In this document: one piece after another, positions 9,335 through 27,690 of the stretch | How positions within the stretch are numbered: the first letter of the stretch is position 1 | Layout of the letters: each line of letters begins with the position of its first letter | NCBI GenBank assembly: GCA_050633305.1 | Contig: JBOEGF010000047.1 | Location: 54,514 to 118,513 of the forward strand | Direction of reading: 5' to 3' | DNA: 64,000 nt | Source: Nannocystales bacterium | GTDB taxonomy: Bacteria > Myxococcota_A > Polyangia > Nannocystales > Nannocystaceae | Made by a program: the position numbers and the translations under genes | The notes under the pieces: model-generated | Told to the model about the DNA's origin: nothing | What the model saw: the letters and a program-made list of their open reading frames with translations, nothing else | The model's database searches: none

Positions 9335-11167
9335 CTAACGCATACGTCGCTCGAGACGACGCGCGGTGTCTTCGAGGACCGCCCGGTACGTTGGCGGAAC
9401 CAACTCCACCTGGTGTCGCAGGTACGGCAGCAACTCGGAGTTCGTCAGCTCGCGGAGCGCGTGAAGGGCCAGTTCGGCGAACACCTTGTCGTTCTCGCGC
9501 AAACGGTCACACAAAAACTCCAGCGCGGGCGCGGTGTTGATCTTGCCGATCGCTCGAACGGCAGCCGTGCGCGCTTTCTCGGCATCGGGCAGGTCCCGCA
9601 TGGAGAAGATGCGACGCAAGGGCTCGAACGCATGCGGAAACACGAGCCGGGTGGTCGAAGCGGCAGCCGCCTCTCGAACGTCGGAATCGTCGTCGCGCAA
9701 GGCCTCACCGACCAGCGCGAACGACCGCTTGAAACGCAGGCTGCCCATCGCAGCACCCACGGCCTCCCGGATGTTCGCATCTGGGCTCAGGTAGAGCCGC
9801 TCGAGCGCCGCGATCACGGGATAGGCACGGATCGACTCCAGACGACGAATCACGTCCACCGCGGGGGCATCACCGCCGCGTCGTTCGAGGTCCAACACCA
9901 ACAGCAGCGCGTGTCGCCGCACGAAGTCGGGGAAGCGACGATCCGCCATCACCCCCGCAGCGATCAGCCCGGGGTCGCCCTCGAGTTCCCACTCCGCGAG
10001 GTCCACGTACCAGACCTCCTCGTACTCAGGGAGTTGCTTGAGGAACTCTGGAACGGGCACAGGCCGTGGCGCGTCCTGCTGCTCATTGCCCAGGCGGTCG
10101 ACGAGTCGGCGGTAGCGTTCGCGAACCTTGGTGGGCAACTCCAGCGCCGAGAGTCGCCCGTACACCTCGACCACCTGTCGATACGCCCGAACCGACGCGA
10201 AACCTTCGGACGCGGCCAGGAAAGCGTTCTCGACCATCTGCAGGGGATGCGAGGCCGCTTGCGCCTCGGCGGCCGTCTTCACCCATGCCTCCGCACTGCG
10301 CAGTCGAAGGTCATCCGCATACGGAAGACCCGCGCGGGTGCAGTAGTCGGCCGCCTCCCGCAGAATCCCCGCGGCGGCGTGGTGCTCTCCGGCCCGTCTC
10401 GCCAGGGTCACCAGAGCTTCGTAGAGCCGAAGGGCGTCGAGCTTGAGGCCGTCGTTGCGGAGGATACGGACGCTGTTGAGGTACCCCTCGGCGATGTTCT
10501 CGAACGCTCCGGCTTCGGCCCCGATCCGCGCCAGCAGCTGGTAGCAATCGAAGGCGCGTTCGCGCAGCCCTTCGGTCTCGAACCAGTCGGCGACCTCTTC
10601 GACCGCCGTCGTCGCGTCCGCGAGCGCGCTGCGGGCCCGCTCGTGCTTGAGACGAAGCAAGCACAGGCCGTAGTTGATCTTCGCCAATGCGAGTTCGTAC
10701 TTGCGGTCGCGAAGCTCGTCGGAGGTCATGATGACCTGCCACAACTCCGAAGCGGCCGCGTCGTCCCCGGCTCGTTCGAGGGCAATGGCCTGATGAACCG
10801 GCATTCGGGCAGCGGCGAACCACTGCGCAGCTGCGGCGTGGTGCCCCGCCCGGGCCATGTAGATGCCCTGCAAACGCATCCCCCGAAGCGCCCCCTCATC
10901 CCCCGCCTCGACGTTCGTGACGGCCGCTGAGAACGCCTCGGTCGAGGGGACCTCGGTCGCGCCCAGGTACGCAGTGCAGCCGGCCGCTTCACGCCAATGG
11001 GCAAGCGCGCGGAGGCTCTCCCCCATCGCACGCAGCCATTCTTCGTACTCGAAGTCGATGCGGTCGACGACCTCGACCAAGTGCCGCAGGTGGACGAGCG
11101 CGTCTGCGTGGCGACCCGCCCGGATGTTGGCCTCGGCCCGGACCCACAGCACCGCGGTATCGATCAC
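9335..11167 (-). CDS. All-helical solenoid protein: TPR/SNAP-like N-terminus, HEAT repeats at C-terminus
   Basis: HEAT-like units (ALRDDDSDVREAAA, RTAAVRAIGKI); Ala/aromatic helical repeats; 4-nt overlap with the vWA gene. Confidence 0.7.
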   Translation of the reverse strand: MIDTAVLWVRAEANIRAGRHADALVHLRHLVEVVDRIDFEYEEWLRAMGESLRALAHWREAAGCTAYLGATEVPSTEAFSAAVTNVEAGDEGALRGMRLQGIYMARAGHHAAAAQWFAAARMPVHQAIALERAGDDAAASELWQVIMTSDELRDRKYELALAKINYGLCLLRLKHERARSALADATTAVEEVADWFETEGLRERAFDCYQLLARIGAEAGAFENIAEGYLNSVRILRNDGLKLDALRLYEALVTLARRAGEHHAAAGILREAADYCTRAGLPYADDLRLRSAEAWVKTAAEAQAASHPLQMVENAFLAASEGFASVRAYRQVVEVYGRLSALELPTKVRERYRRLVDRLGNEQQDAPRPVPVPEFLKQLPEYEEVWYVDLAEWELEGDPGLIAAGVMADRRFPDFVRRHALLLVLDLERRGGDAPAVDVIRRLESIRAYPVIAALERLYLSPDANIREAVGAAMGSLRFKRSFALVGEALRDDDSDVREAAAASTTRLVFPHAFEPLRRIFSMRDLPDAEKARTAAVRAIGKINTAPALEFLCDRLRENDKVFAELALHALRELTNSELLPYLRHQVELVPPTYRAVLEDTARRLERRMR

Positions 11168-12642
11168 GAGCGACGACCTCCACCAGGCCGTGTCGAACGC
11201 CTCTTGGCGCGCCCACCATCGAGGTCGCTTTGGACCTCAGCGATGATCTGCCGGGCCTTGTGAGCGCGGCGCCCATGCGAGATGGCGTCGGAATCGATGA
11301 CGTGGACCCTGTGTAGCGAGTCGAGATACGGCAGTTCCAGGGGCCCGCTGGGCAGGATGAACACCCCGTAGACCGGCGCCCGGGTGCTGAGCAGCGCCAG
11401 CTCGTCGGGTGGGAGCTGACACTCGCCGTGCGTGAGCAGGTAGACCAGCGACTGACCTTCCTTGCGCCGCGGCGTCGCGAGTTCGCTGTTGAGTTGCCGG
11501 ATCACGCGGGCGTAGTTGCGACCGCGCTCCGCCCGAAACTGCAGCGCGTACGGGACCTCGGCGCTGCCCGTCCCGCTGACCTTCACCCCTTCGTACAGGC
11601 GTGAGTCAAAGAACCGCAGGCTTACATCCTCACCCAGCATCGCCAGCCGCTTGCACAGCGCCAGTGCAAGCCCCCGAGCGAACACCTCACGAACCCCGCG
11701 CATCGAGGCGGACCCGTCGACCAGCACCTGATGACGGCGCCGCTCGTTGTCCATCTGCTTCTCGTGCGTGAAGTAGAACAGCTCGTTGTCGACCAGCCGT
11801 TGCTCGAACACATCCTCGTCGTAGGCGAGCTGCGTGAGCACCAGGTCATCGAGGTTGCCGCGCCGCTCGATCGACGCGTACCCGTCGATCGAGAAAGACT
11901 GCTGCCCGCCCTCGCGCCGAACCTCGAGGATGCTGGGAAGCAACTCCATCGAGAAGTCGACAACGTCGGCCAAGGACGGCGAGATGATGACGTTGTATAG
12001 GTCGGCCAGATCGATCCCCGGCAACGCATCACCGCCGCGGAACAGCCCCAGCAACCGCAGCGCGTCGAGGTCGACCTGCTCCACCTCGAGGATCGGAAGC
12101 AGCCGATGCGTCGTCATCGTGCCCAGCCAGGCATGAGCCTCGCTCTGGTCGTAGCGGCCCCACGCGGAGGTGGGCTCGACCCGGGCGTACTGCACCACAT
12201 CGACGGGAAGCATCGTCGGTTTGAGCACCCGAAGGTCTTCGGGAAGCTGCGGAATGATGGTGGAGAACACCCGAGCCAGAACCACGCCCACCATCGCGTC
12301 GCGGTGTTTCCATCCTGCTTGGGTCCGCACGAGCTCGGACTCCCCCAGCTCCAGCAACAACCGGCGCCAGGCCTCACAGACCTCCGGGTCCCCCAGTCCG
12401 CGGACCTGTCCAGCGGGTTTTCCCAGACCCGCGATCAAGCACCCAAGGTCGTGCACGACGACCAACGGGACCGCGTAGCCAAGTCGCCCCAGGGCGTTGT
12501 GCCAGGCCACTGCCCGCATGAGCGCGAGGGCACCGGTGCCCTCGAGCTGCGACATGGCCATCGTCCCGACCTGCCGTTCGAATCCGGGGCCGGGTCCAGG
12601 TCCGGAGCCTGTGTCCGGCCCACCAGCGGTGTCGCGCGCCAT
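11164..12642 (-). CDS. vWA-domain protein, partner of the MoxR ATPase
   Basis: MIDAS-like VLVDGSASMRG, LRFFDS and YLLTHG; GYASIERRG...LFYF segment before the vWA core. Confidence 0.8.
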   Translation of the reverse strand: MARDTAGGPDTGSGPGPGPGFERQVGTMAMSQLEGTGALALMRAVAWHNALGRLGYAVPLVVVHDLGCLIAGLGKPAGQVRGLGDPEVCEAWRRLLLELGESELVRTQAGWKHRDAMVGVVLARVFSTIIPQLPEDLRVLKPTMLPVDVVQYARVEPTSAWGRYDQSEAHAWLGTMTTHRLLPILEVEQVDLDALRLLGLFRGGDALPGIDLADLYNVIISPSLADVVDFSMELLPSILEVRREGGQQSFSIDGYASIERRGNLDDLVLTQLAYDEDVFEQRLVDNELFYFTHEKQMDNERRRHQVLVDGSASMRGVREVFARGLALALCKRLAMLGEDVSLRFFDSRLYEGVKVSGTGSAEVPYALQFRAERGRNYARVIRQLNSELATPRRKEGQSLVYLLTHGECQLPPDELALLSTRAPVYGVFILPSGPLELPYLDSLHRVHVIDSDAISHGRRAHKARQIIAEVQSDLDGGRAKRRSTRPGGGRRS

Positions 12643-12669
12643 GAAGGAGCAATCAGAAGGAGAGAACCG

Positions 12670-13902
12670 TTAGACGAAGCGACTGGAGGCGAACATCGTC
12701 TCCAAGAGCTTGTCGACTTCACCGATCATGCGGCCGGCCGTGGGGTTGTCGGGCATGCGGGTGAGCGCAGCTTTGATGTCTCCGAGGTTTCGCAGCTGGC
12801 TGAACAACTGCATGTCCGAGAGCACCTCACTGCTGGTGAGGGTCTCGCGGATGACCTTGAGTTCTTCGAGGAGGTCGCTGAGGTTGGTCGGCGTAGCGCC
12901 GATCCGGGCCTGATCAGGGTGCTGCTCGTACCACTGGTCGAGCACGGGACCGACGATCTCTTGGAGGATTTCCTCCTGCTCGGGCGTGTTCCACACGTGG
13001 CGCAGCACGAAGAAGTCGCTGTCGTTGACCTTTGTTCGACCGTCGAACACGGCCGACGCTGCGAACAGCTTGAGCATCTTGACGATCCGGCGGTCGGACA
13101 GGCCGAGGCCCTCGGAGCGAATCTGAAATGCGAGGCCCTTGAAGGTGGCCAGGAACTCCTCGTTGAACGACAGCAGGTTGCCAAAGTTGCGCTGCAGCGA
13201 GCGGAGTTCGGCCGCCGTGACCACGGGGGTGAGCGCCTTGGAGTCGGGGTCCATGCCCCGTGCCTCCAGCTCGATGCCTTTTTGGAGCAACCCTCGGAAG
13301 TGATACGAGTCGAGGTAGTCGACACGCACCCGCAACAAGAAGCGGTCGAACAATGCGGAGAGCGCATCGTCGGTCGGCACCTCGTTGCTCGCGGCGAACA
13401 TCGAGATCAGCGGCACCCGAATCGACTGGTTGCCATGGGTGAAGCGCCGTCCGTTGAGGACCGTCAACAAGCTGTTGAGAATGGCGCTGTTGGCCTTGAA
13501 AATCTCGTCGAGGAACACGACCTCGGACTCGGGCAGCATCGCCTCGGTCCGACGACGATACGACCCCTGCCGGAACGCCTGAATGTCGACCGGTCCGAAG
13601 ATTTCGTTGGGCTCGGTGAATCGGGTGAGGAGGTAGTCGAAGTACTCCGCCTCGATCACCTGAGCGAAGCCACGGAGCAATGCCGACTTGGCCGTGCCCG
13701 GAGGACCGACCATCACCAGGTGCTCGCCGGCGAGCGCACTGACGAAGAGGAGCCGAATGATCTCCTCCTTGCCCAGAAACTGTTGTTCGAGCTGACGCGC
13801 TCCGTCTTGGAGTCGTCGTGCGAGGTCCGGGATCGAAGGGGGATTCGAGGGCGCGGGCGCGTTGCCGGGCGGCGGCGGCGCGGGTGACGGCTGCGTCATC
13901 AC
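12670..13902 (-). CDS. MoxR/RavA-family AAA+ ATPase
   Basis: Walker A GPPGTAKS; LLTRFTEPNEIFGP; Walker B FLDEIFKANSAILNSLL; ASNE sensor I; ALFDRF Arg finger. Confidence 0.92.
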   Translation of the reverse strand: MMTQPSPAPPPPGNAPAPSNPPSIPDLARRLQDGARQLEQQFLGKEEIIRLLFVSALAGEHLVMVGPPGTAKSALLRGFAQVIEAEYFDYLLTRFTEPNEIFGPVDIQAFRQGSYRRRTEAMLPESEVVFLDEIFKANSAILNSLLTVLNGRRFTHGNQSIRVPLISMFAASNEVPTDDALSALFDRFLLRVRVDYLDSYHFRGLLQKGIELEARGMDPDSKALTPVVTAAELRSLQRNFGNLLSFNEEFLATFKGLAFQIRSEGLGLSDRRIVKMLKLFAASAVFDGRTKVNDSDFFVLRHVWNTPEQEEILQEIVGPVLDQWYEQHPDQARIGATPTNLSDLLEELKVIRETLTSSEVLSDMQLFSQLRNLGDIKAALTRMPDNPTAGRMIGEVDKLLETMFASSRFV

Positions 13903-15071
13903 GCAGGTTTTACGATGGCGGGGACAAGGCCGGCTAGCAGATTCTCGACCGCCGCCTTCGGCACCAGCTCAGCGACGTGATCGAGGTATTCGGTCCACAG
14001 GCGATTGGCTCCCGCCTCGAAGCTCTCCAGTCCCAAACCGGCACCCCGTACCGCCGTGCCGGACAACGGCGATCCTAGCCGCGAACGCAGGGCGGGCAGG
14101 AGCAGCGGTAGGGCCAAGAACGCCAGGACCCCCGGGTCACGGCTGCCCAGCGCCAGTCCCAACCGAGCGTCAAACTCCAGCACTTTGAGGAAGTGAAGGT
14201 GGATCAGCGACCCTACGAGCGCGCTGAGAGACTCGGGGTCCGAGGCGGGTACCGCACCGGGAAGCGCGAGCATGCCTCCGGGGCGTGCGGGCAGAGGCGC
14301 CGTGGGCTTGGGTGCAACCGAGGGAAGCAGCGCCGACATCACCGCCCCACCGACCTGAATCCAGTCTTTTCCTTGCGCCCAACGGTAGACGATCGCCCGG
14401 GCCAAGCCGCGCTCGCGAAGCGCGTCTGTGGCGAGCAAGGGGGACCAGCCCGAGGGTGCTCGGCGCGGCTCGAGTAGACACGTGAGCGGCGAGGCCCGGA
14501 GCGCATCGTCGATCAGACGTCCTGCCTCCGGTGCGTGTGGCAGCGTCAGCCAGGAATGCGTCTCACGCGCCGTCCCCAAGGACGGACCGCCGAAGAATCG
14601 GCGCGGTGGCTCTTGCCCGGCGAACCGATGCTCACCACTGGCGTTGACCAGGACCGTGTCGGTGCGTTGCGACCCGAGGAATGCCCCCACGGTCACGTGC
14701 CGAGCAACGGCAGCACCGACGGAACTCGGAAACGGGAGCGTGAGGAGCGTGCGGGTGGCTCCCTCGACCCGGCGCCAGACGCTTGCGCGACTCCAAACCC
14801 TGGACCGGTCGGGATGATCGAACGCGAACGTGTTGTGCAGCCCCATCCACAACGAGAGTTCTTCGTCATCGGGCTCGGGCAACGCGGGGTGCGGCGTGAG
14901 TTCTTGGGCCCGGCGTAGCCGGAGGTACGCGAGCGCGGACCCAGCCTGGCTCACGTCACCAAGCCACTGGTCGCGCTCCCGCGTTCGCAGCGGTCGGCCC
15001 ACGTGCACCGCGCCTCCGCCGAGCAACGGCAGGATGAAACCACGGAGGAATTGGTCGAACGTTGCCGGCAC
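13899..15071 (-). CDS. Hypothetical protein, coupled to the MoxR gene
   Basis: 390-aa ORF; its TGA overlaps the MoxR start; no recognisable motif. Confidence 0.7.
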   Translation of the reverse strand: MPATFDQFLRGFILPLLGGGAVHVGRPLRTRERDQWLGDVSQAGSALAYLRLRRAQELTPHPALPEPDDEELSLWMGLHNTFAFDHPDRSRVWSRASVWRRVEGATRTLLTLPFPSSVGAAVARHVTVGAFLGSQRTDTVLVNASGEHRFAGQEPPRRFFGGPSLGTARETHSWLTLPHAPEAGRLIDDALRASPLTCLLEPRRAPSGWSPLLATDALRERGLARAIVYRWAQGKDWIQVGGAVMSALLPSVAPKPTAPLPARPGGMLALPGAVPASDPESLSALVGSLIHLHFLKVLEFDARLGLALGSRDPGVLAFLALPLLLPALRSRLGSPLSGTAVRGAGLGLESFEAGANRLWTEYLDHVAELVPKAAVENLLAGLVPAIVKPA

Positions 15072-15080
15072 TGCCGAGTC

Positions 15081-16661
15081 CTACTGTCCGGGTCCTCGCT
15101 CGTCGTCCCGACCCATGACCGGGGCCTGCCCCCCGAATCCCCACAGGGCAAAACGACCGAGCTTCTCGTTGCGGATCGAGCCCGCGGTCAAAGCCGGCGC
15201 CGACGGGTCCACAACCTGAGCATCTTCCAACGTCAAGCGGCCGATCAGAGCCGCGTCCAACGGCAGCAACTGATCCGGCCCGACGCGGATCGGGGCCTTG
15301 TCGGGTCCGAGGAACAACGCGTGGTCCTCAGGCCCCAAGCCAAGAAGCTGCCGGAGCAGCGTTGGGCGGACGCGCGGCCACAGCTCGTACCCCTCGGGCA
15401 GCAAGACACCGGGGGCCGCCTCGCCCAAGCGCTGCCCCAGCGGCACGATGACCCCTGCCCCGATGCCCGCGGCCGAGGCCGCGGTTCGAGGTCCGAGGGA
15501 CGACCCGGTGAGGACGACGACACCTTCGTCCAGCGGGACGACACGTGAGGCGGCGAGGGCACTGGGTGGGATCAGGTAGACGAGATTCCGCAGCAGGGCG
15601 ACCTGCGACCAGGCGATCAGCGTGCCGCGAGGTTCCTTGGGCGCCGTCGTGGCACGCACCTGAAGCTCGACTCGCAACGGGGCCAGTTCGGCATCGCGCA
15701 GCTGCCCGACCTCTCGCAGCTGGTTGACCCCCGTCGATTCGACGAGGTGGCGACCATCGACGAAGCGTGGAGGGCCACCGAGGCGCTCGACCCGACCCAC
15801 GCGCCCCCGGAACAGGAACATCTCCTCCCCGGGAAAACAGCTCTGGGCGGAGGACAGTGAGATCGCGTGTCGGTAGCCGATCTCGACCGCAGCCCGAGAG
15901 CTGACGGGTGCGAACAGATCGATTCCCGGAATGCCCGCGAGCACGTCCAGGGTCCGGGGCTCGGGCTGACGAAGCCGAAGCAACAGGCTGGGCCGTGCGT
16001 CGCTCTCGAGCTGCACGTAGTAGCCGGCCATCGGCACCTCGGACTGCCACAGGTACCGCAGCACCCGCTCGGCGAGCCCGGCGGAGACGAGGACCAGCGC
16101 CATCTCCCGCATGCCGAGCAGCTCCGAGTCGCGGGACACCCCGCCCAACGGCATCGGCATCGGGCGCAGCTGCAAGCGCTGGATCAGCTCGACCGGATCG
16201 ATCCGGTCCAACGTTTGGTACCGCGCCATGTGGGTTGGCTCGACCACGGTCACGTCGTCGCCCGAGGGCACGATCGGCTCCACGACGTCGTAGCCGAACG
16301 GCGCATCGCGCTCTCGCCAGCGAAGGAACACCGAGCCGGCGCCCGAATACAGCTCGCCCCGCGCGGCCATGCACAACCGGGAGATCCGGTCGACAGCATA
16401 GCCATCCCCGGCACCACACCGCATCAGCATCGCGTGTCCGCCACCTTCACGGCGCGCGTGCTCCAACGTCATCGTTGGGATGAGTTCGTCGAGGCTGGCC
16501 TCGTCGCTGTACGCCCCGAGAAAGGAGACCAGCCAGTCGATCGAGCCGAACACCAGGAGGAGTTCCCGACCCACGGCGATTCCGCGGGCGTCGGGCGCCA
16601 GGCCTTGCATTCGGAATCGCGTTTGTCCCGCCGCAACGGGCTCGAGCAGGGCTGAAGCCAC
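15081..16661 (-). CDS. Hypothetical protein, first gene of the MoxR-vWA operon
   Basis: Coding-like from about GTG 16661 (the ORF-track extension to 17222 overlaps the FHA gene); 9-nt gap to the next gene. Confidence 0.7.
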   Translation of the reverse strand: MASALLEPVAAGQTRFRMQGLAPDARGIAVGRELLLVFGSIDWLVSFLGAYSDEASLDELIPTMTLEHARREGGGHAMLMRCGAGDGYAVDRISRLCMAARGELYSGAGSVFLRWRERDAPFGYDVVEPIVPSGDDVTVVEPTHMARYQTLDRIDPVELIQRLQLRPMPMPLGGVSRDSELLGMREMALVLVSAGLAERVLRYLWQSEVPMAGYYVQLESDARPSLLLRLRQPEPRTLDVLAGIPGIDLFAPVSSRAAVEIGYRHAISLSSAQSCFPGEEMFLFRGRVGRVERLGGPPRFVDGRHLVESTGVNQLREVGQLRDAELAPLRVELQVRATTAPKEPRGTLIAWSQVALLRNLVYLIPPSALAASRVVPLDEGVVVLTGSSLGPRTAASAAGIGAGVIVPLGQRLGEAAPGVLLPEGYELWPRVRPTLLRQLLGLGPEDHALFLGPDKAPIRVGPDQLLPLDAALIGRLTLEDAQVVDPSAPALTAGSIRNEKLGRFALWGFGGQAPVMGRDDERGPGQ

Positions 16662-16883
16662 GGCGCAGGATACTAGCAGCCCGAGGTGAAACCCGGCGGG
16701 GCGGATCCCAAAGGATTTTCGAGCCCCGCGGCGAGAGTCGAAACCGCGACGAATGAGGTGTCCTGCGAGGTTTGGGGACGCGCGGAGGCACAAAACGGCA
16801 CGGGCGACCCCCTGCTGTGCTCGCCGAGTCGACCTGCTCGTCCGTCCTCGTTGCCCCCTGCCCGTGTCGGCACGCCGTTGGAC

Positions 16884-16892
16884 TGCTAAGAT
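16884..16892 (+). promoter_or_regulatory. Extended -10 element for the FHA/kinase operon
   Basis: TGcTAAGAT followed by GGAGG at 16900-16904. Confidence 0.4.
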
Positions 16893-16988
16893 CGCATCCG
16901 GAGGCACAGGCCCCTGTCGCGAGGAAACGACCCGCTCACTCACCCGGAAAACGCGCTCGCTCGGCTGGACCCCACCGGTCGTGCGCGG

Positions 16989-18248
16989 TTGTCCCGGAGG
17001 TCGACGCTGCGGCCCGAGGTTCGTGCCGCGCTTGCGCTGGAAGAAGCCGGGGAACTCGAAGAAGCCGCGCGGGTCTTCGAGCACGCAGGCGAGCACGCTC
17101 AAGCGGCGCTGTTGCGGATCGAGCACGCCCGCACCCTCCGCGATCCATCCGACCGGCTCGATGTCCTGCGAGAGGGATGCGCCCGGAACTCGGGCAACAC
17201 ACCGCAGGGCAAGACGCTGCATCTGGCGCTGGCTGAGGTGTTGCTCGACGAGCGTGACGCCGAGACCGACGCCTCCCGAATCCGCTCGCTTGAACTCGAA
17301 GCTGCGCGCGCCCTCGAGGAAGCCGGAGAGTTCGCGCGCGCCGGCGAGAGCTACGAAGCGCTCGGCTTACTGCGCAAAGCCGCCCGCGCCTACGAACGCG
17401 GCGGCGAGATCGCCAAGCTCGAACTGGTGCTGGCCGTGCTCGAACGCATCGATGACAGCCGAAAGCGCGAACGCGACCTGCTGCGCGAGTTCGACGACGC
17501 CGTCGCTGCTGGCCAACGACGCTTGGCCCAGGAGCTGCTCGCCGAACACGACACCCCGACCCTGCCCGTCCTCGCCTCCGAAGCGCATCGGACCGCCGCC
17601 GCGGGGCTGCCCCCGGCACTGCTCGAGCGACGCCAGTGGCTGCAGGGCCGGGTGCTCGACCGAGACCGGGTCGACCTCGCGTGGGGGAAGGACCGCTTGA
17701 CCTCCGTCCGGATGAGTCGCCATCTCGAGATCGGCCGCTCCCCGAGTGCCGACATCACCCTGCCCGCCCCCCGACTCTCGAGAGAACACGTTCGGCTGTC
17801 CTTGGAGACGCTGGAGGGCCGAACCCGGCTTGCTGCGACCGACCTCGGCTCAAAGGTCGGCACTTTCTGGGAGGGCGAAGCGCTCGTCCCGGGCGAACCC
17901 ACCCCCTTGGAAGAACCCGGGGCGCTGGCCCTGGGCATGACCTCCGAGCTCGAAGTCGTCCCGGTCGAGGGTAACGCAGGCGCGGTGCACGGAGCGTTGG
18001 TCCGCGCCGCCCCTGACGAAGCGTGGATGCTCTTCCTCCCCAATGGCGGGCCGCTGTGGCTCGCACCGGACATCAAGGTGCCCGCCCGGGTGTTGTTCGA
18101 CCGCGGCCTGGTCACCTTCGACCTCGCCACCGGCGTGGGCGCGACCCTGGGCGACCGTCCGTTGGGCGCGGGCGCGAACATCGAGTTCATCTTGGGCGAC
18201 CGCTTGTGCTTGGTGGGCGCCCCGCTGTGCCTCGAGGTGCTTGGATGA
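16989..18248 (+). CDS. TPR-like repeat protein with FHA domain
   Basis: Helical repeats (ARAGESYEALG, ARAYERGG); FHA motifs IGRS...LSREH...DLGSKVGTF; start uncertain (TTG 16989 or CTG 16914). Confidence 0.8.
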   Translation: MSRRSTLRPEVRAALALEEAGELEEAARVFEHAGEHAQAALLRIEHARTLRDPSDRLDVLREGCARNSGNTPQGKTLHLALAEVLLDERDAETDASRIRSLELEAARALEEAGEFARAGESYEALGLLRKAARAYERGGEIAKLELVLAVLERIDDSRKRERDLLREFDDAVAAGQRRLAQELLAEHDTPTLPVLASEAHRTAAAGLPPALLERRQWLQGRVLDRDRVDLAWGKDRLTSVRMSRHLEIGRSPSADITLPAPRLSREHVRLSLETLEGRTRLAATDLGSKVGTFWEGEALVPGEPTPLEEPGALALGMTSELEVVPVEGNAGAVHGALVRAAPDEAWMLFLPNGGPLWLAPDIKVPARVLFDRGLVTFDLATGVGATLGDRPLGAGANIEFILGDRLCLVGAPLCLEVLG

Positions 18249-19618
18249 CCGCGTCCTGGGCCCTGGAGATGGGTGGCGCCGAAACCCCGCCCTCCCCCCT
18301 GCACAATGCCGCCTCGGAAGTGATCGCCGCGTTTGCCGACGGCGCGACCACGCCCGCGGAGCATGCCCTGCTTGGGCAGTTCGCCGATGCGCTGATGCGA
18401 GGTGTTCCCATGAGCGCGCTGCGAGCCGACCTCGCGCAGCTCAACCACGAGGGCTACATCCGCGGTGCGCTGGTGAGCATGGCGGTCGCGCTGCAGCGGC
18501 ACGGCAACCCGGACGTCGCCCTCGCGCTGGGCCGCGAGCTCATGGACGCGATCGACATCGAGCTGGGCGTGCGCCTGTGCCGAGCGGTCCTCGCTCTCGA
18601 CGATGTCGACCAGCACCGACACCAGCCTGGCAGCACCTTTGTTGCGGCCAACCGCATCGTCGGCGACGCGCTGCTCGAAGCGGGCGATGCCTCCACCGCG
18701 CTGCGGCATTTTGAAGCGGTGTTGTCCGTCGATGTCGACGATCCGCGGGCGCTGCGGGGATGGTCTGAAGCCACCCGAAGCCTCGAGCGTCGCGGCGTCG
18801 CAGTCGAGCACCGAACGCGCGGGCTATCGCTGCTCGAGGGGCTCGATGAACTCGAACTCGAAGAGGGCCTGGCCGGAGAACGCTACGAGGTTCAGCGACC
18901 GCTGGGACGGGGTCGCCACGCGGTCGTCTATCAGGCATTCGACCGCCACGTCGGGCGCGACGTCGCGATCAAGCGCCTCCTGGACGCCAGCGCACGGACC
19001 TCGGCAGCGCCGCCTCGCGTGGTCGAGGCGCGATTCTTCGCCGAAGCGTCCACCTTGGCCAAAGTCCGCAGCCCGTTCGTGGTTGCCCTCCTCGACGCGC
19101 ATCCGTCCAAGCGCTTCATCGCGCTCGAGCTGTGCCGGGGTGGCAACCTGCGTCTCGCGTTGCGCCGGGGGCTTGTCGACGCATCCGATCTTCCCCGGAT
19201 CGGTGGCCAGCTCCGGTCTGCGCTCGAGGCCGTCCGCGCTGCGGGTGCGGTCCACCGAGACGTGAAGCCTGCAAACATCCTCGTCCGAGCAGCGCGGCGA
19301 GGCTCCACGATCGCACTGGGAGACTTCGGGCTCGCGGTGGGGCATGCCAAGGCATCGGGCACGGGCCGTGGCGGCACGCTGCGCTACCTCGCACCGGAGC
19401 TGCGCACGAAAGACGCGCCCAAAGCGACGGGGCAATCCGACCGTTTCAGCGCCGGCGCGGTGCTCCTGGAGCTGGCGCTGGGAAGCCTCCCCGAAGCTTT
19501 CGACCACGTCGACGACACCTTCGACGCCGCCGCATTCGTCCCCGAGGACCTCCCCGAGGCATGGACCCCCCGCCTTCGCAGCCTTCTACAGGCCGACCCG
19601 CAGGACCGCTCGTGGTGA
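18245..19618 (+). CDS. Soluble Ser/Thr protein kinase with N-terminal helical/TPR-like region
   Basis: ATGA overlap at 18245; LGRGRHAVVY, VAIK, HRDVKPANIL, DFG and GTLRYLAPE motifs; no TM segment. Confidence 0.9.
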   Translation: MTASWALEMGGAETPPSPLHNAASEVIAAFADGATTPAEHALLGQFADALMRGVPMSALRADLAQLNHEGYIRGALVSMAVALQRHGNPDVALALGRELMDAIDIELGVRLCRAVLALDDVDQHRHQPGSTFVAANRIVGDALLEAGDASTALRHFEAVLSVDVDDPRALRGWSEATRSLERRGVAVEHRTRGLSLLEGLDELELEEGLAGERYEVQRPLGRGRHAVVYQAFDRHVGRDVAIKRLLDASARTSAAPPRVVEARFFAEASTLAKVRSPFVVALLDAHPSKRFIALELCRGGNLRLALRRGLVDASDLPRIGGQLRSALEAVRAAGAVHRDVKPANILVRAARRGSTIALGDFGLAVGHAKASGTGRGGTLRYLAPELRTKDAPKATGQSDRFSAGAVLLELALGSLPEAFDHVDDTFDAAAFVPEDLPEAWTPRLRSLLQADPQDRSW

Positions 19619-20265
19619 AATCCGTCGTCACCCCACTCTCGTTGCTGCTGCTCATCGTCACCGCGGTGGGCTGCGAGGAGCAGCCGCGGCTGTACAGCAC
19701 CCGCGCCGCGACGGGCGAGGTCATCTTGCGTGAAGACTTCGACCGAGATGAGCTTGGCGAACGCTGGCACGCCACGGGCGAAGGTGCCCGGATCGAAAAC
19801 GGCCTGCTCGTCGTCGATGGTGTTCGCAACCACCCGTTGTGGCTCGAACTCGACCTACCCGACGACGTTCGGATCGAGTTCGACGCCTGGGCCACCACCG
19901 ACGAAGGAGACGTCAAGGTTGAGCTCTTCGGCGACGGGACGAGTTTCGCGACGACCCCCAACTACATCGCCAGCGGGTACGTCGTGATTTTCGGTGGTTG
20001 GAACAACACTCTGTCTGCGCTCGTCCGCAAGAACGAGCACGGTCGGCAGCGGGTCACGACCAACGAGCTGAAGGTCCAGCCCGACAAACGCTACCACTTT
20101 GTGCTGACCCGCACGGGCCGCGAGCTTCATTGGGAGGTCAACGGAGCCGAACTTCTGGTGTACGAAGACGCCCAACCTCTGCGTGGCGTAGGTCAAAACC
20201 GCTTCGCGTTCAGCGGGTGGGACGCCCAGGCCCATTTCGACAACCTCGTGATCGAAGCGCTGTGA
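19615..20265 (+). CDS. Lipoprotein with concanavalin A/LamG-like beta-sandwich
   Basis: GTGA overlap; lipobox AVGC; EDFDR...W, RIEFDAW and HFDNLVI patterns. Confidence 0.7.
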   Translation: MKSVVTPLSLLLLIVTAVGCEEQPRLYSTRAATGEVILREDFDRDELGERWHATGEGARIENGLLVVDGVRNHPLWLELDLPDDVRIEFDAWATTDEGDVKVELFGDGTSFATTPNYIASGYVVIFGGWNNTLSALVRKNEHGRQRVTTNELKVQPDKRYHFVLTRTGRELHWEVNGAELLVYEDAQPLRGVGQNRFAFSGWDAQAHFDNLVIEAL

Positions 20266-23200
20266 CCGATTCCCCCGACCTGCCGAGAGTGTTCGGCCGC
20301 TACATCCTCACCGCGCTGGTCGGCGAGGGGGGCATGGCAGAGGTCTACACCGCCACCGTGCAGGTCGCGGCGGGGCTCACCAAGCGCGTCGTCATCAAGA
20401 AGATCCGGCAAGTCTACGCCGACCACGAAGAGTTCACGCGAATGTTCGTCGACGAGGCGAAGATCGCCTTGTCTCTCAACCACGCGAACATCGTCCAAGT
20501 CTTCGACTTTGGGCAGGTTCAAGGCGCCTTCTACCTCGCGATGGAGCCCGTCGAAGGCATCGACGCGATGCGGCTGTTTCATGCGGTCCGGGACGCCCAA
20601 GAGCGTTTTCCACGGGTTGTCGCCGCGTACATCGGGCATCAGGTCGCAGCCGCCCTCGCCTACGCGCATCGCAAGACCGACGACCACGGCCAGCCCCTCG
20701 AGTTGGTCCACCGCGACATCAGCCCGCACAACGTGATGGTGTCGTTCGAGGGCCAGGTCAAGATCGTGGATTTCGGCATCGCGCGAACCGCAAACGGATC
20801 ACGCGATGCCCCGGTCCCCGGCATCGGGGAACGGACAGAGGAAACGATCAAGGGCAAGGTCGCGTACATGTCCCCCGAGCAGGCCCACGGCCTGGCGGTG
20901 GACCAACGCTCCGACGTCTACTCCCTCGGCGTCCTGCTGTACGAACTCGTCTCCGGCGAGCTCGTGTTTCGCAGCCGCGACCGGCTCGCCGCGCTCGAAC
21001 GCGTTCGCAACGAGCCTCTTCCGGCGTTGCGAGACCAGGCCGACGACGTTCCACAAGCCCTGCTGAACATCATCGACCGGGCGCTCGAACGCGACCCGCA
21101 GGATCGCTACCCCACCGCGCGCGCGATGCAGTCCGAGCTCGCGAAGTTCCTGCACGCCGCAGACCCGGTGGTCGACGACGACACCCTCTCGCAGTTCGTC
21201 CTGCGCTACTTCACTCCCACCCCACCTCCGGTCATCGACGAGAGCGCCCTTCCACGCGACGCGACACGGGGCGGACAGACCTCCTACCCGTCAGTCCGAG
21301 GGACCGCCGCGCGCGTCATCGTCGTGCACATGGCGTTGGACGCCCATCCGCTCATGCCCACCGCGGGGCCCGTCGAAGCAGAGCCCTTCTTGCGGCTGGT
21401 CGATGACGTCGCGTTCAAGCGCGACGCGGTGCTGCTGCGAAGGGATGAATCGGGCATCACGATGGCCTTTGGGGCGGTCCTACAATCCCCCGACGACGCC
21501 GACCGAGGGTTGCGCTGTGCCCTCTCGCTGCAGGATGACGTCGCCCACATGGCCCCCGGGCTCCGGGTAGGCGTGGTCGTTGCCCGCATTCGCGCGAGCG
21601 TCACCCGGGAGAGCAAGACCGTGCAGGTCAAGGTGCGTCCACAGACGGCCGACCTTCTCCACAAGGTCGCCGCGGTGGGCATGGAAGGCCCTGTTCGGGT
21701 CGCCGGTCCGCTGATCGAGGCGCTCTCGAAGGGCTGGCGATTTGGTCCCGAAGCGTTCGTCGACCCAGACGGAGCAGGAGAAACCCACTCGGCGGTGGAT
21801 CGAGAGCTGGGCAACGTCGCCCCGGTCCTGGGCCCACTCGCACCGCAGGCTCGTACCCGCGCCGCAGCCCCGGGGGGTCGAGCGCTCCTGTTCGGACGAG
21901 AGCTGGAACTCAAGGCCCTGCGCGACACCTTCTCCGAATCGATCCGGGCCCGAGAATCGCGCGCTGTGGTGGTGCTCGGTGAGGTGGGTGTGGGCAAGCG
22001 AGCCGTCGTCGAGCGATTCGTAGAATCTCTGCCCCGGACCGCCTGCTGGATCCTACGAGCATCGGGGACGTACGGCCGGCGCAACGTCCCGCTGGGCGTG
22101 GTCCTCGATCTGCTCTCTCGCTTCCTGGGTACCGACCATCGCTGCGATGAGAGCGATGTGGTGAGCAAACTGCAAAGCCACGGCGTCAGCGAGGCGCCGG
22201 TCTTGGGCGCGGCGCTCGCCTCCGCGTTGGGCCTCAAGGGAAGTGCGGCCGATGGCGGGGACGATGATCTCGATCCGTTCACGCGCCGCGACCGACTTTG
22301 GAAACTCGTCCGTCGCTTGACCACCGCGCTGGCACAACGCCGGCCGGTGCTGATCGTGATCGAAAACCTGCACCTGCACGACGAACAGAGCATCGCGCTG
22401 CTCCGCGAGTGGGTTCAGATCCGGCATCCGTACCCGATCTTGGGGGTTACGACCGGCCGACCCGGGACCCCGCGTGTCGATGCGATCCTTGGAGAGCCCA
22501 ACATCGCGCGCATCGAGTTGGGTGAGCTGGACCTGCAAGCGCGACATGAACTCGTGTCCTCACGGTTCGAAGACTCGCCTTCCGCACGAACCTTCGCCGA
22601 AGCCCTGCTGGCCCAGACCGGCGGCAATCCGTTGTTCATCGAGGAGAGCCTGGCTTCACTCCTCGAAGCCGGCGTCATCGGATGGAACGCCCAGGCCAGC
22701 GCGCTGGTGGTCAAGCAGCACGGGGCTCCCATCCGCATGCCGCCCAGCGTCGAAGCTGCCTTGGTCGAACGCATCGACCGCCTGCCCGAGGAGGACCGCC
22801 AAGCCCTCCTCGGCGCCGCAGTGCTCGGTCGACGGTTTCGCAGCCACGAACTCTCCGACCTCATCGAGCGCAGCGTCGGCCGAAGTGTCGACCACCTCAT
22901 CGAGCGCAACCTTCTCGAGCGACTCACACCGACCTCGCCCCTGGGAGAGAACGCTCGGTTCGCCACCTTGAGCCTGCACGAGGCCTGCAAGGGCATGCTC
23001 GAGACCTCCGCTGCCCACGCCCTTCATGTTCGGGCCGCCCACCTGATCCGCGAGCGGCCCGACTACGCTGCAGAGCGTGACGACGGCCCGATCGCCGACC
23101 ACCTGGTCCAGGCCGGCCGCGCATCCGAAGCCATCGCCCCAGCCTTGGCCGCTGCGCTTCGAGCCTACGACCTGGCGGGCAACGTCGAGGCCTACTACCA

Positions 23201-24557
23201 CCTCTCGCAAGCGCTGCGCGCGATGGCGGACGATGACCCGCGGCGCTGGGATGCGCTGCTGAGGCGCGAGCGAATCCTTCGCGCATGGGGACGACGACGG
23301 GCCCAGGGTGCCGATGTTCGCGCCCTGCTACATACCGCCGACTCGCTGGGCGACCCGGTCCGCCAAACGATTGCGTCGATCCGGTTGCTGCGCTTCTATC
23401 TTGAGGTTGGCCGCGTGCATCAGGCTCAGCGCCTGATCCCCCGGATCGAGGCGAGGATCGAGACCCTGCCCGCCCCAGATCCCTTCTGGGCGGTCCTTGG
23501 CGAGCTTCGCTCCGAGCTCTTCTTTTCGACCGGGGAGTTCGAGGCCTCCGAGAACACCGCTCGCTCGAGCCTGCCGTACTGCGCGAGCGATGCGAGAGGC
23601 CAGCGGCAACGTTGCAGGCTGCTGCGCAGCATCGGACAGGTCAAGGCCACCATCGGGCGGTTCGCGCAAGCGCGGCAGTGCTACACCGAAGCGCTCGGCA
23701 TCGCCCGCGAGATCGGCAACCAGCGCCTCGAAGCAAACCTCCTCAACGCTCTTGGCGAGGTTGCCGGTCGGAGCACCCACTACCAGGAAGCGGTGGACCA
23801 CTTCAAGGCGGCCCTCGCCATCGACCGCGATCTGGGAGACCGCTACGCGACCGGCCGAAAGCTCGCCAACCTCGGCATGACCTATGCCTGCATTGGCTTG
23901 GCCCGCCGTGCCGAACGGTTCTTCCGCAAGGCGCTCGAACTCCACGAAGCGGTCGGCCACCCCGGCGAGTTCAACGACGCCGCCGTTCACCTGGGCGAGG
24001 TCGTCGCCGACGGCGGGGACCCAGAGACCGCTCGCACGCTCTTGCTGGATGCCGCACGCGTGGCGGCCACCCGGGGAGACATTCGCACCGAACTTCGTGC
24101 CCGGGTCCGCCTCGCCCAAGCGCTGCGCGCCGGCACCCCGTCGGCCGAAGACCTCAAGGCCTCCCGCGTAACGGCCGAGCAGGTCCTCACCACGGCGCGG
24201 GCACAAGGGCTGCGAACCTCGACCTGCCGCGCACTCCACGTGTTGGCGCAGCTGGACCTCGCCGCGGGCAACCTCGACGCGGCCCAGGCGGGCCTCGAAG
24301 AAGCCGTCGAACTCGTTCGCGCAGGCGCCGCCCCCGTCGACGGAGTCCGTTCGATCCACCTGCTTGGGGTTCGGCTTCGCGACTGTGGGCACCACGACGA
24401 TGCGCGAGCACTTCTGCACGAAGCCGCGCTGATGGTGAAGGGCCGGCTCGATGAGCTCCGCGACAGCGATCTACGCTCCGGCTACCTCGAACAGCCCGAG
24501 GTCCGCCAGATCATGACCGACGGCGGTCTCGACGCGCCTCACGACGACCTCGGATAG
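20262..24557 (+). CDS. Multidomain kinase / cyclase-like / STAND AAA ATPase / TPR protein (NLR-like)
   Basis: GTGA overlap; kinase motifs GEGGMAEVY, HRDISPHN, DFG, YMSPEQ; cyclase-like MAFGA...DDADRGLRCAL; LFGRELEL, GEVGVGKR and TGGNPLFIEE; C-terminal TPRs. Confidence 0.88.
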   Translation: MTDSPDLPRVFGRYILTALVGEGGMAEVYTATVQVAAGLTKRVVIKKIRQVYADHEEFTRMFVDEAKIALSLNHANIVQVFDFGQVQGAFYLAMEPVEGIDAMRLFHAVRDAQERFPRVVAAYIGHQVAAALAYAHRKTDDHGQPLELVHRDISPHNVMVSFEGQVKIVDFGIARTANGSRDAPVPGIGERTEETIKGKVAYMSPEQAHGLAVDQRSDVYSLGVLLYELVSGELVFRSRDRLAALERVRNEPLPALRDQADDVPQALLNIIDRALERDPQDRYPTARAMQSELAKFLHAADPVVDDDTLSQFVLRYFTPTPPPVIDESALPRDATRGGQTSYPSVRGTAARVIVVHMALDAHPLMPTAGPVEAEPFLRLVDDVAFKRDAVLLRRDESGITMAFGAVLQSPDDADRGLRCALSLQDDVAHMAPGLRVGVVVARIRASVTRESKTVQVKVRPQTADLLHKVAAVGMEGPVRVAGPLIEALSKGWRFGPEAFVDPDGAGETHSAVDRELGNVAPVLGPLAPQARTRAAAPGGRALLFGRELELKALRDTFSESIRARESRAVVVLGEVGVGKRAVVERFVESLPRTACWILRASGTYGRRNVPLGVVLDLLSRFLGTDHRCDESDVVSKLQSHGVSEAPVLGAALASALGLKGSAADGGDDDLDPFTRRDRLWKLVRRLTTALAQRRPVLIVIENLHLHDEQSIALLREWVQIRHPYPILGVTTGRPGTPRVDAILGEPNIARIELGELDLQARHELVSSRFEDSPSARTFAEALLAQTGGNPLFIEESLASLLEAGVIGWNAQASALVVKQHGAPIRMPPSVEAALVERIDRLPEEDRQALLGAAVLGRRFRSHELSDLIERSVGRSVDHLIERNLLERLTPTSPLGENARFATLSLHEACKGMLETSAAHALHVRAAHLIRERPDYAAERDDGPIADHLVQAGRASEAIAPALAAALRAYDLAGNVEAYYHLSQALRAMADDDPRRWDALLRRERILRAWGRRRAQGADVRALLHTADSLGDPVRQTIASIRLLRFYLEVGRVHQAQRLIPRIEARIETLPAPDPFWAVLGELRSELFFSTGEFEASENTARSSLPYCASDARGQRQRCRLLRSIGQVKATIGRFAQARQCYTEALGIAREIGNQRLEANLLNALGEVAGRSTHYQEAVDHFKAALAIDRDLGDRYATGRKLANLGMTYACIGLARRAERFFRKALELHEAVGHPGEFNDAAVHLGEVVADGGDPETARTLLLDAARVAATRGDIRTELRARVRLAQALRAGTPSAEDLKASRVTAEQVLTTARAQGLRTSTCRALHVLAQLDLAAGNLDAAQAGLEEAVELVRAGAAPVDGVRSIHLLGVRLRDCGHHDDARALLHEAALMVKGRLDELRDSDLRSGYLEQPEVRQIMTDGGLDAPHDDLG

Positions 24558-24573
24558 CGGCTATTCTCCGGCG

Positions 24574-25176
24574 GTGAGCCCCGCGCGATCGGTTGCCCTG
24601 GCTGCGTGTCTTCTGGCTGGGTGTGCCAGCCGCTCGGGCATGCTCGTCGCGCCCTCGGGCGAGATGCGGCAGACCGGCCGCGACATGGAAAGCGGCGTGA
24701 CGATGGTGATCACCTCCGGCGTCTGGACCGGTGCGCCCGAGGGACTCGAGGAAGAGCTCGAGGTCCTCCACGTGCTGGTCGCCAATGACGGAGACCAGCC
24801 GATCTTGCTCGCACCCGGGGACTTTGAGTTCCACGACCGACGAGGGTTCCGCTACGCCGTCTTGGATACCGGGGCGAGCTTCCGCCCGGCAACAACCACC
24901 GAGAAGAGCACTGGACGCTACGACTTTGACCTCGAGCGGGGATACGACCCGGGCGGACCCGCACCGGTCGAGCGCATCGAACCCTTGGGGGACATTGCCA
25001 GGCTGGCGCTGCCCTGGGGTGTCCTGCTCCCCGGATCTCAGATGCGCGGCTTTCTCTACCTCGAACCCGTCGCCGAGTCGGCCAACGGCGGAACGCTGAC
25101 ATGGCGCATGACCACAGCGGCGCACCAACGCATCGCCGACGTCGTCTTCGAGATGTCCGTGGCTCGCGCCCGCTAG
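24574..25176 (+). CDS. Hypothetical lipoprotein
   Basis: Lipobox LAGC; beta-rich domain (VLVANDGDQPI, MRGFLYLE). Confidence 0.7.
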   Translation: MSPARSVALAACLLAGCASRSGMLVAPSGEMRQTGRDMESGVTMVITSGVWTGAPEGLEEELEVLHVLVANDGDQPILLAPGDFEFHDRRGFRYAVLDTGASFRPATTTEKSTGRYDFDLERGYDPGGPAPVERIEPLGDIARLALPWGVLLPGSQMRGFLYLEPVAESANGGTLTWRMTTAAHQRIADVVFEMSVARAR

Positions 25177-26265: not shown

Positions 26266-26334
26266 CGGGTGGGTCTCCTGTGGGTCGTGGCGGCTCCTCC
26301 GCCTTGCCAACACCCTATTCATAGCAAGACAGAT

Positions 26335-26389
26335 AAAACTAACAACTTAAAAAGACCATAAAACTAACACTCCTTCCAAAAAACTAACA
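26335..26389. repeat. Three direct repeats of AAAACTAACA
   Basis: Exact copies at 26335, 26360 and 26380 in an AT-rich intergenic island. Confidence 0.85.
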
Positions 26390-26440
26390 TCCTGAGAGAT
26401 CGGCGGCGCTGTTGGCGCACTTCGCCTCATGCGCTTAACG

Positions 26441-26480
26441 AAAAAAAGGAAGGGAAGCCACCAGGCTCCCCTTCCCTTTT
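26441..26480 (-). terminator. Intrinsic terminator after paralog 2
   Basis: AAAAGGAAGGGAAGCC-ACCA-GGCTCCCCTTCCCTTTT hairpin; the A7 run gives a U-tract on the minus strand. Confidence 0.8.
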
Positions 26481-26497
26481 CGAATCAGACGGTCAGA

Positions 26498-27487: not shown

Positions 27488-27690
27488 TGTTCGTCCCTTG
27501 CGGTTTGTGGGTAGCTCGCTTGCGCGGTCGAAGAGCCAGTCCCCGAGGCTCTCTTTGCTCGTTCGTCTGAGCCGCCTTTCAGACGGGTTGACGAGGTGGA
27601 GCGGAATGACGTTGTGGGCGAGTCCTTTGGTTCTGCGAGTGGCGAGGGGTCGAAACAACGGGTCACGACCGTGACACCACGGCTGACGGA

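Follow-up and report, generated by a model that had tools for sequence, protein, structure and literature searches.

Architecture of the locus

The subject of this article is a two-armed gene locus at positions 9335 to 25176 of a 64,000-nucleotide stretch of DNA (the window) from a Nannocystales bacterium (Polyangia; Nannocystaceae; assembly GCA_050633305.1, contig JBOEGF010000047.1, positions 54,514 to 118,513 of the forward strand). Seven of its ten genes, encoding X1, X2, a MoxR ATPase, a vWA protein, TPR-HEAT, TPR-FHA, and the kinase KinA, are treated here as the core, and the remaining three (Lec, kinase-STAND, and Lipo) as peripheral. Genomes, contigs, loci, and families of the comparison carry the prefixes G, C, L, and f.

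An initial annotation had drawn two tightly packed arms of five genes each, facing away from a spacer of about 0.3 kb. All ten open reading frames lie where it placed them, and its eight intergenic distances recur exactly (9, −4, 27, and −4 nt leftward; −4, −4, −4, and 16 nt rightward). The spacer measures 327 nt (16662-16988) with the GTG at 16661 taken as the start of X1, which is backed by the N termini of homologues, or 252 nt if TPR-FHA begins at a conserved CTG at 16914. Pfam matches over the ten genes (HEAT, bpMoxR/AAA_5, FHA, two kinases, AAA_16, and TPR) bear out the labels MoxR, HEAT, FHA, kinase, and TPR, and the vWA label is borne out by an intact DxSxS motif together with weak ivWA and VWA_2 matches. 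Of every non-kinase gene the genome contains a single orthologous copy, with two distant paralogues besides in the case of MoxR. The nearest named homologues of X1, with 95–96% identity, are labelled Nannocystaceae. All ten genes are under purifying selection: the dN/dS ratio against up to five close loci is 0.025–0.24 for the ten reading frames and 0.025–0.23 for the core (estimated by the simple NG86 method, with dS close to 1 and a single gene–locus pair skipped), and the flanking genes ECH and OmpA give 0.07–0.14 and 0.17–0.24.

Table 1 Features of the locus, in window coordinates.
Feature	Positions	Strand	Basis
TPR-HEAT, core; TPR/SNAP-like and HEAT solenoid, 610 aa; predicted vWA client	9335..11167	−	HEAT_2 matches
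vWA protein, core; long N-terminal region	11164..12642 (start possibly 12561)	−	DxSxS motif, weak ivWA/VWA_2 matches
MoxR AAA+ ATPase, core; bpMoxR/RavA-related, own clade	12670..13902	−	Pfam
X2, core; 390 aa, mostly helical; putative weak, remote fvmX1 relative	13899..15071	−	Profile matches, model
X1, core; 526 aa, repeated ferredoxin/ACT-like units; C-terminal half apparently fvmX7/bpX2-related	15081..16661	−	Profiles, model
Putative divergent control region	16662..16913		By-eye reading of seven-row DNA alignment
TPR-FHA, core; TPR-like region and FHA domain	16914..18248 (probable CTG start; first standard start 16989)	+	FHA profile
KinA, core; TPR-like N terminus and Ser/Thr kinase	18245..19618	+	Invariant catalytic residues
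Lec, peripheral; lipoprotein with ConA/DUF6250-like domain	19615..20265	+	Weak domain matches, C20
Kinase-STAND, peripheral; kinase, degenerate cyclase-like and STAND parts, TPR, 1431 aa	20262..24557	+	Pfam
Lipo, peripheral in the loci seen; family-less lipoprotein	24574..25176	+	0 Pfam/NCBIfam matches

Within the spacer, an outward-facing pair of extended −10-like sites can be read by eye at 16670-16678 (minus strand) and 16884-16892 (plus strand), and both are conserved in about six rows of the seven-row alignment. The left site precedes the start of X1 by 8 nt (region 16659-16678, minus strand), an arrangement that suggests a near-leaderless X1 message. The right site is followed by GGAGG at 16900-16904 and then by the in-frame CTG, which 6/7 aligned rows keep and which is the probable non-standard start of TPR-FHA. 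A sigma-70 scan missed both sites; the sigma-70 and terminator scans stayed at chance level in the window.

The left-arm proteins

MoxR has bpMoxR as its best-scoring Pfam family (E 9.9e-77). Its P-loop, GPPGTAKS at residue 66, fits the GxxxTAKS motif, which is present in all 41 rows of a quick tree and hence is not discriminating. The nearest solved sequence is RavA (E 1.3e-48), with a match that stops at around residue 321 of the roughly 500 in RavA, and the NCBIfam RavA score of 198 bits falls below the equivalog cut-off of 681. In the tree, MoxR belongs to a clade of 27 rows (SH-aLRT 99), whose sister the quick tree leaves unplaced. Inside the clade, ten f2 genomes (95) and six Nannocystaceae-like rows (100) cluster, and such clustering by family is as expected under vertical descent.

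The vWA domain forms the C-terminal end of its protein in all 16 rows. The DxSxS motif of its MIDAS, a metal ion-dependent adhesion site, is intact (D282-x-S284-x-S286), and N349 and H378 occupy the positions at which such sites usually have T and D. H378 is invariant in 42/42 rows, as are D282 and S286. The ivWA profile matches 10/16 rows below the cut-off (best E 0.0046), VWA_2 also matches weakly, and an hhalign comparison with the ivWA of an FtsH ternary system in genome G191 yields 66% (E 5.6e-5). The Pfam scan of the vWA rows gave no propeller, bpX0, or bpX1 match, and the vWA profile found no match among the PDB sequences. Its neighbor TPR-HEAT matches HEAT_2 in 42/42 rows, across which only TPR, SNAP, and HEAT matches occur; E223, E227 (codon 10487-10489), and N231 are invariant in the same 42 rows, and its maximal 19-residue hydropathy is 0.89.

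X1 and X2 belong to families that appear to be remote relatives of domains from the FtsH and β-propeller ternary systems, namely fvmX7/bpX2 and, weakly, fvmX1. Among 92 X1 homologues, fvmX7 matches 30 (best 8e-14) and bpX2 matches 38 (best 6e-9). X1 exceeds the fvmX7 cut-off in 2/5 genomes, the window protein not being among them, and the latter matches bpX2 with E 0.23. By hhalign, X1 compares with real bpX2 at 74% (E 2.9e-5) and weakly, at 12%, with the fvmX7 of G191. Its model (pLDDT 85.4, pTM 0.60) consists of repeated β-α-β-β-α-β units, the middle one of which (residues 180-250) resembles ferredoxin/ACT-like domains (best Z 8.0, rmsd 2.0, 60 residues). Foldseek returned no match for X1, and all other matches are generically ferredoxin-like. 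For X2, fvmX1 matches 4/108 homologues (best E 1.3e-6) and 0/5 genomes, and the hhalign comparison is weak (4.6%). The X2 model (pLDDT 91.9, pTM 0.90) is mainly helical with a β insertion. Foldseek found nothing at E<=0.001 in the PDB or the viral library, and the best VIA score is Z 5.2, which does not in itself amount to a new fold; the ESM Atlas held no match at or above 0.9.

The right-arm FHA–kinase pair

TPR-FHA contains an FHA domain in 11/11 rows, with G-R and S-R-x-H conserved; such core residues serve FHA domains in binding phosphothreonine. In KinA, K243, D339, N344, and the DFG motif are invariant in 18 rows, and, judged by sequence, its catalytic residues are intact. Hydropathy reveals no apparent transmembrane segment in KinA and no clear membrane segment in any of the seven core proteins (19-residue hydropathy at most 1.70). 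Hence, the trigger of a system built from them would be intracellular or would arrive via a receptor encoded elsewhere. As a separate observation, HAD, HGD, or HLD replaces HRD in the catalytic loop of 8/18 KinA orthologues, and a short activation loop is common among the orthologues. Such non-RD loops are linked to immune kinases.

Co-inheritance of seven genes

The seven core genes are co-inherited, mostly in single copy, in about half of the class. This was determined in a phylum sample of 201 genomes and a class sample of 151, and gene orders were compared in the best 80 of 168 named loci; several search profiles held sequences from carrier genomes, and the queries for vWA and MoxR were the single window proteins. 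X1, X2, and TPR-HEAT each match the same 19/201 genomes, the TPR-HEAT figure being a floor from a stricter first look. vWA matches 18 of these 19 carriers, once each, and MoxR is found at E<=4e-121 in the same 18/201, the next best match being 8e-71 and 55 genomes having some MoxR at 1e-40. TPR-FHA matches 21/201 genomes, namely 18 carriers and three non-carriers in which the match covers the vicinity of the FHA domain only (about 1e-16). Its matches are long in 18 carriers and partial in G059 and G075; G165, the nineteenth carrier, emerged from a deeper search. In 12/18 loci, KinA directly follows TPR-FHA. The other seven carriers have one stand-out full-length match (E<=3e-87), which in three of them lies <=1.6 kb from TPR-FHA, and the three non-carriers reach 1.5e-65 at best, in the kinase part only.

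The class sample shows the same pattern. X1 occurs in 76/151 genomes and TPR-FHA in 78/151, with both genes in 74, X1 only in 2, TPR-FHA only in 4, and neither in 71; presence of the two thus agrees in 145/151. Whole families can be uniform, f1 (17/17) and f8 (16/16) being positive throughout and f51 (0/18) and f59 (0/11) negative. X1 and TPR-FHA stand head to head, with ends within 600 nt, in 38/74 carriers from 9/16 families and also in G061 outside the class (for genes matched in pieces, in six genomes, the piece nearest the gene start was used). Among the best 80 of 168 loci, TPR-FHA lies upstream of X1 in 24/25 informative Nannocystales-like loci and in only 2/44 Haliangiales-like ones; whole genomes of f8, which groups with the Haliangiales-like loci in the MoxR tree, nevertheless have the pair at other positions. 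In G140, a single contig carries the core genes at 0.94, 3.69, 5.95, 6.15, 6.60, and 6.67 Mb, six places spread over 5.7 Mb. Since both arms co-occur even where their genes are scattered over megabases, the link between them exceeds the adjacency on which it had been based, and the conservation of both arms in other genomes holds. The core is also present in the cultured species Enhygromyxa salina, Plesiocystis pacifica, and Paraliomyxa miuraensis, and the mean identity of its seven proteins is 52–82% over up to 16 Nannocystales-like loci.

Several loci depart from this layout. Two assemblies carry two copies of locus genes (L040, L041, and contigs C14 and C20 of G232), by duplication or through mixed bins. 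In L035 (7188-8906; G061), an extra 573-aa gene lies between TPR-HEAT and X2, reads by eye as TPR plus a degenerate kinase, and has no Pfam match. A small receiver-like gene recurs in L019 (4946-5335) and eight other Haliangiales-like loci, mostly between MoxR and vWA.

A predicted contact between vWA and TPR-HEAT

With TPR-HEAT (residues 95-608) and vWA (residues 1-445) each entered as an alignment of 42 rows, and with metal not included, their complex is predicted with a score of 0.69, compared with 0.00 for the best of three controls. This mark is reached by 116/157 solved complexes and 2/215 mismatched pairs, a calibration that is rough here as own alignments were used. At least 88% of contacts are common to the prediction runs, and the pLDDT of the partners is no lower than 69. 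The best-placed contacts join E227, A226, and E223 of TPR-HEAT to S284-A285-S286 of vWA, and D194/E190 to N349; the closest pairs are those of E227 with S284, A285, and S286. Hence, the invariant E227 is predicted to sit on the metal site of vWA, and the model supports binding of the two proteins. Such a geometry has a known counterpart: remodeling in CbbQ–CbbO depends on the MIDAS and on an acidic residue of the client, and the available part of that work describes such a residue as generally providing the fifth ligand of the metal (PMC5437159). Binding via an acidic client residue at MIDAS being a known mode, this argues in favor of the vWA/TPR-HEAT contact. As far as the accessible parts of the two papers go, it is the N-terminal part of CbbO and of ViaA that binds the ATPase (PMC5437159, PMC9489729).

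Relation to the ternary MoxR–vWA systems

In the available portion of Kaur 2020, the FtsH and β-propeller ternary systems are proposed to share an ancestor (PMC7159879); iSTAND2 and TERNS3 were added by Kaur 2021 (PMC8195603). In the portions of the two papers at hand, the ternary MoxR–vWA systems are predictions, and the vWA client goes unnamed (PMC7159879, PMC8195603). The system described here is a relative, not a member, of the FtsH and β-propeller systems, being without FtsH and without a propeller, much as the initial annotation had proposed. This proposal is sustained by the profile matches of X1, vWA, and MoxR and by the rarity of the FtsH N-terminal part, which, searched with a single-sequence query, matched 2/19 carriers only (G120 and the query source G191) and was not found in the other 17/19. 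fvmX5 is likewise confined to 2/19 carriers. Because both are so rare and a propeller is lacking, the seven genes may by this reading be taken as a third branch beside the two systems.

Several traits are held in common with the FtsH system as set out in the part of PMC7159879 consulted: a bpMoxR-type ATPase, a divergent vWA behind a large N-terminal region, the apparent likeness of X1 to fvmX7 and, weakly, of X2 to fvmX1, and occurrence in myxobacteria. Unlike that system, the locus is without a double-AAA FtsH (no third component with two FtsH-type AAA domains, of which the first is inactive, was found in it), fvmX5, radical SAM, and a peptide or ubiquitin-like module; TPR-HEAT, TPR-FHA, and the kinase stand in their place. 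Among the ten genes, to which this search was confined, neither Pfam nor NCBIfam gave a match to NEFF1/radical-SAM peptide, ubiquitin-like conjugation, or caspase modules. Pfam also gave none to VMAP, iSTAND, iSTAND2, or TERNS3 except for VMAP-M0 in 1/108 rows (E 0.009), in a library that may hold no iSTAND2 or TERNS3 models. With the β-propeller system, as presented in the same portion of that source, the locus shares bpMoxR, the apparently bpX2-like C-terminal part of X1, and the absence of a conventional effector; moreover, the sole plasmid match of vWA, a partial one, falls in the bpX0-bpX4 locus of a complete β-propeller system of Hymenobacter. It differs in having no propeller on vWA or a third component and no apparent membrane segment in the core. 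TPR-HEAT compares weakly with the TPR protein of a sister locus (hhalign, 8.9%) and at 51% with TPR-FHA, a likeness that may be generic repeat similarity.

Related arrangements occur in some genomes. G191 carries a true FtsH ternary system (L329:4465-15404) with radical SAM, fvmX5, FtsH with an M41 peptidase, MoxR, a long fvmX7 protein, and ivWA, and the MoxR/vWA pair of this system might stand in for the core pair, which was not found there. In G120, FtsH-system parts (contigs C32 and C98) occur alongside a full core. An FtsH-less sister arrangement of fvmX1, MoxR, TPR, and X1-like genes is seen in L321:8817-15971 (G026) and L323:6218-11175 (G087), the former also with a WD40-vWA fusion.

A different precedent is the epibiont-sensing pathway Esr of Actinomycetales, in which a threat signal was shown to be passed on through phosphorylation of threonine (PMC13622651, in the part available). 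Esr unites MoxR, vWA, a Ser/Thr kinase, and an FHA protein in one conserved pathway, and all four are present here; as a MoxR–vWA–kinase–FHA relay is thus experimentally known, it sets a precedent for the relay proposed below. The likeness is drawn from gene types. Its secreted β-propeller sensor, transglutaminase, and phosphatase, as far as that part of the paper describes them, are not among the ten genes, to which the search was confined, and the kinase here is soluble. The gene set as a whole is seemingly undescribed in the literature searched, which covered neither subscription papers nor the neighborhood list of Kaur 2020, a list that may include these loci.

Proposed mechanism and its alternatives

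On balance, we consider it probable that the seven genes encode a vertically inherited MoxR–vWA remodeling switch that acts on TPR-HEAT and is tied to phosphothreonine signaling. Herein, vWA would be the adaptor, with its metal site predicted to grip E227 of the TPR-HEAT solenoid, and a MoxR hexamer would bind the N-terminal region of vWA, by analogy with CbbQ–CbbO and RavA–ViaA. An ATP-driven pull would remodel TPR-HEAT together with the assembly that it may scaffold, probably with X1 and X2. KinA would phosphorylate a threonine within this assembly or close to it, and the mark would be read by TPR-FHA, gating or relaying the switch. Candidate sites are the conserved threonines T197 of X2 (89% of 108 rows), T65 of X1 (79% of 92), and T545 of TPR-HEAT (88% of 42). 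The whole would relay signals in the cytoplasm, most likely answering a threat or cell contact in a regulated way, as Esr does, and would not be a toxin cassette; its substrates, trigger, and output are given here as we infer them.

Several points weigh against this picture. The tie of KinA and TPR-FHA to the left-arm proteins is one of co-inheritance, and the core is without a receptor, phosphatase, or output gene. The sampled genomes are kin, so that co-occurrence counts overstate independence; several profiles contained carrier-genome sequences, and the non-carrier comparison for KinA consists of three genomes. In G191, which is 96% complete, the other five core genes are present and MoxR and vWA orthologues were not found. 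As to the predicted contact, the MIDAS is divergent (H378), the complex was predicted without metal, and the pose of vWA and its ligand was possibly learned from solved vWA complexes.

Among the alternatives, the locus could be a ternary system acting directly against invaders (anti-phage or abortive), in which the complex would be set off by the invader, with MoxR releasing an effector to contain or kill the infected cell. A defence role, which the initial annotation had suggested beside a kin response, is plausible by descent, given the common ancestry with the FtsH and β-propeller systems proposed for conflict; moreover, TPR/HEAT repeats count as effectors in the portion of Kaur 2020 at hand (PMC7159879), and the non-RD loop of 8/18 KinA rows fits an immune kinase. 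We nevertheless regard a direct counter-invader function as unlikely. MoxR–vWA conflict systems in general are defined, in the part of the literature consulted, by a constant core plus a highly variable effector/sensor module. The locus does not fit this pattern: no recurrent effector slot and no variable or enzymatic effector were seen, and the genes inserted in Haliangiales-like loci mostly differ between loci and were not identified as effectors. The low dN/dS of the core, the presence of the system in all sampled genomes of two families (17/17 and 16/16), and a MoxR tree that groups by family speak against it as well. PADLOC gave only generic kinase matches and one weak TPR-HEAT match (E 0.0012) on the locus. 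Nor does it resemble a classical defence island, being single copy and without an effector slot; no relatives of TPR-HEAT or, with a single-sequence query, of vWA were found in viral contigs, and X1 was not found on plasmids.

Alternatively, the system could be a maturation or developmental chaperone of a Polyangia housekeeping complex, similar to RavA–ViaA or NorQ–NorD, tuned by the kinase and FHA protein and without a conflict role. RavA is indeed the nearest solved relative of MoxR; the vWA domain lies C-terminal and is preceded by a long N-terminal region, a layout shared with ViaA according to the part of PMC9489729 available; and single copy, strong purifying selection, and chromosomal dispersal are typical traits of core genes. 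CbbQ–CbbO and RavA–ViaA, as covered in the portions of PMC5437159 and PMC9489729 consulted, likewise combine a MoxR hexamer with an adaptor of the vWA type that binds the ATPase through its N-terminal part. However, the MoxR protein here falls far short of the cut-off for the RavA family, the locus has no linked enzyme client, and the client predicted for it is a solenoid, not an enzyme. The extra partners X1 and X2, which appear to belong to ternary-system families, and the kinase–FHA pair set it further apart, and searches did not find it in roughly half of the class or in most of the phylum sample. A purely housekeeping role thus seems quite improbable.

Peripheral genes

The initial annotation had joined all ten genes into one system. 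This stands for TPR-FHA and KinA, which are co-inherited with the left arm, and fails for Lec and kinase-STAND as core parts. Of its "lectin-like" lipoprotein, the lipoprotein half is upheld by C20, invariant in 11 rows; the lectin-like domain matches are weak (DUF6250 E 2e-4, Laminin_G_3 E 0.12, levanase CBM E 0.019). Lec is found, mostly in single copy, in 117/201 phylum genomes, including families without any core gene, and within the locus in 19/21 Nannocystales-like and 0/35 Haliangiales-like loci. In kinase-STAND, the kinase, AAA_16, and TPR labels agree with Pfam, the latter two over the cut-off, and the cyclase and STAND parts are degenerate. Across 12 orthologues, the conserved metal-binding Asp of the cyclase-like region was not seen, Walker A reads GxxGxGKR/H, and Walker B reads E followed by N/R/A/T/D, the E occupying a position where Asp is usual; ATP turnover is doubtful on these motifs.

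The C-terminal part of kinase-STAND occurs in 72/201 genomes, among them 19/19 of the core-less family f15 and 16/19 carriers, as scored from three candidates per genome, with orthologues and paralogues not separable. Within the locus it is present in 10/18 informative Nannocystales-like and 0/30 Haliangiales-like loci. Lec and kinase-STAND adjoin each other in G090, G115, and G150 and look like a separate unit that has joined the locus in some lineages. The supposed NLR-like sensor does not hold up as part of the system and is probably an add-on. A full ten-gene unit with Lec and kinase-STAND as sensors is therefore very improbable, for all the translational coupling in the window, the frequency of Lec in Nannocystales-like loci, the joint presence of all three neighbors in G090 from another family, and, in G150, a distance of only about 15 kb between TPR-FHA and the other two genes, Lec and kinase-STAND, since the genomes with Lec or kinase-STAND are mostly without the core and the STAND and cyclase motifs are degenerate. 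Lipo, which has no Pfam or NCBIfam match, is present in 11/17 informative Nannocystales-like loci.

Beyond the locus, two tandem cysteine-rich lipoprotein-like genes (window 25306-27658, minus strand), neither with a Pfam match, belong to a large paralogous family with 39 tblastn matches in the genome.

Implications

A further-reaching form of the switch reading is held tentatively: a MoxR–vWA conflict machine may have become, by domestication, part of the Polyangia core genome as a phosphothreonine-gated switch for threat or contact, with TPR-HEAT as its client through one glutamate, a His-substituted metal site, and, in X2, a fold without a clear solved counterpart. If this were true, a MIDAS client could be named for the FtsH/β-propeller family, which would also gain a Gram-negative equivalent to Esr. 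With a predicted client and contact residue, the remodeling step becomes testable with three soluble proteins and single mutations. Because the genes are scattered in many genomes, neighborhood-based screens would miss the system. It is carried by all sampled genomes of two families and by cultured species and, hence, may control a basic trait that sets these myxobacteria apart.

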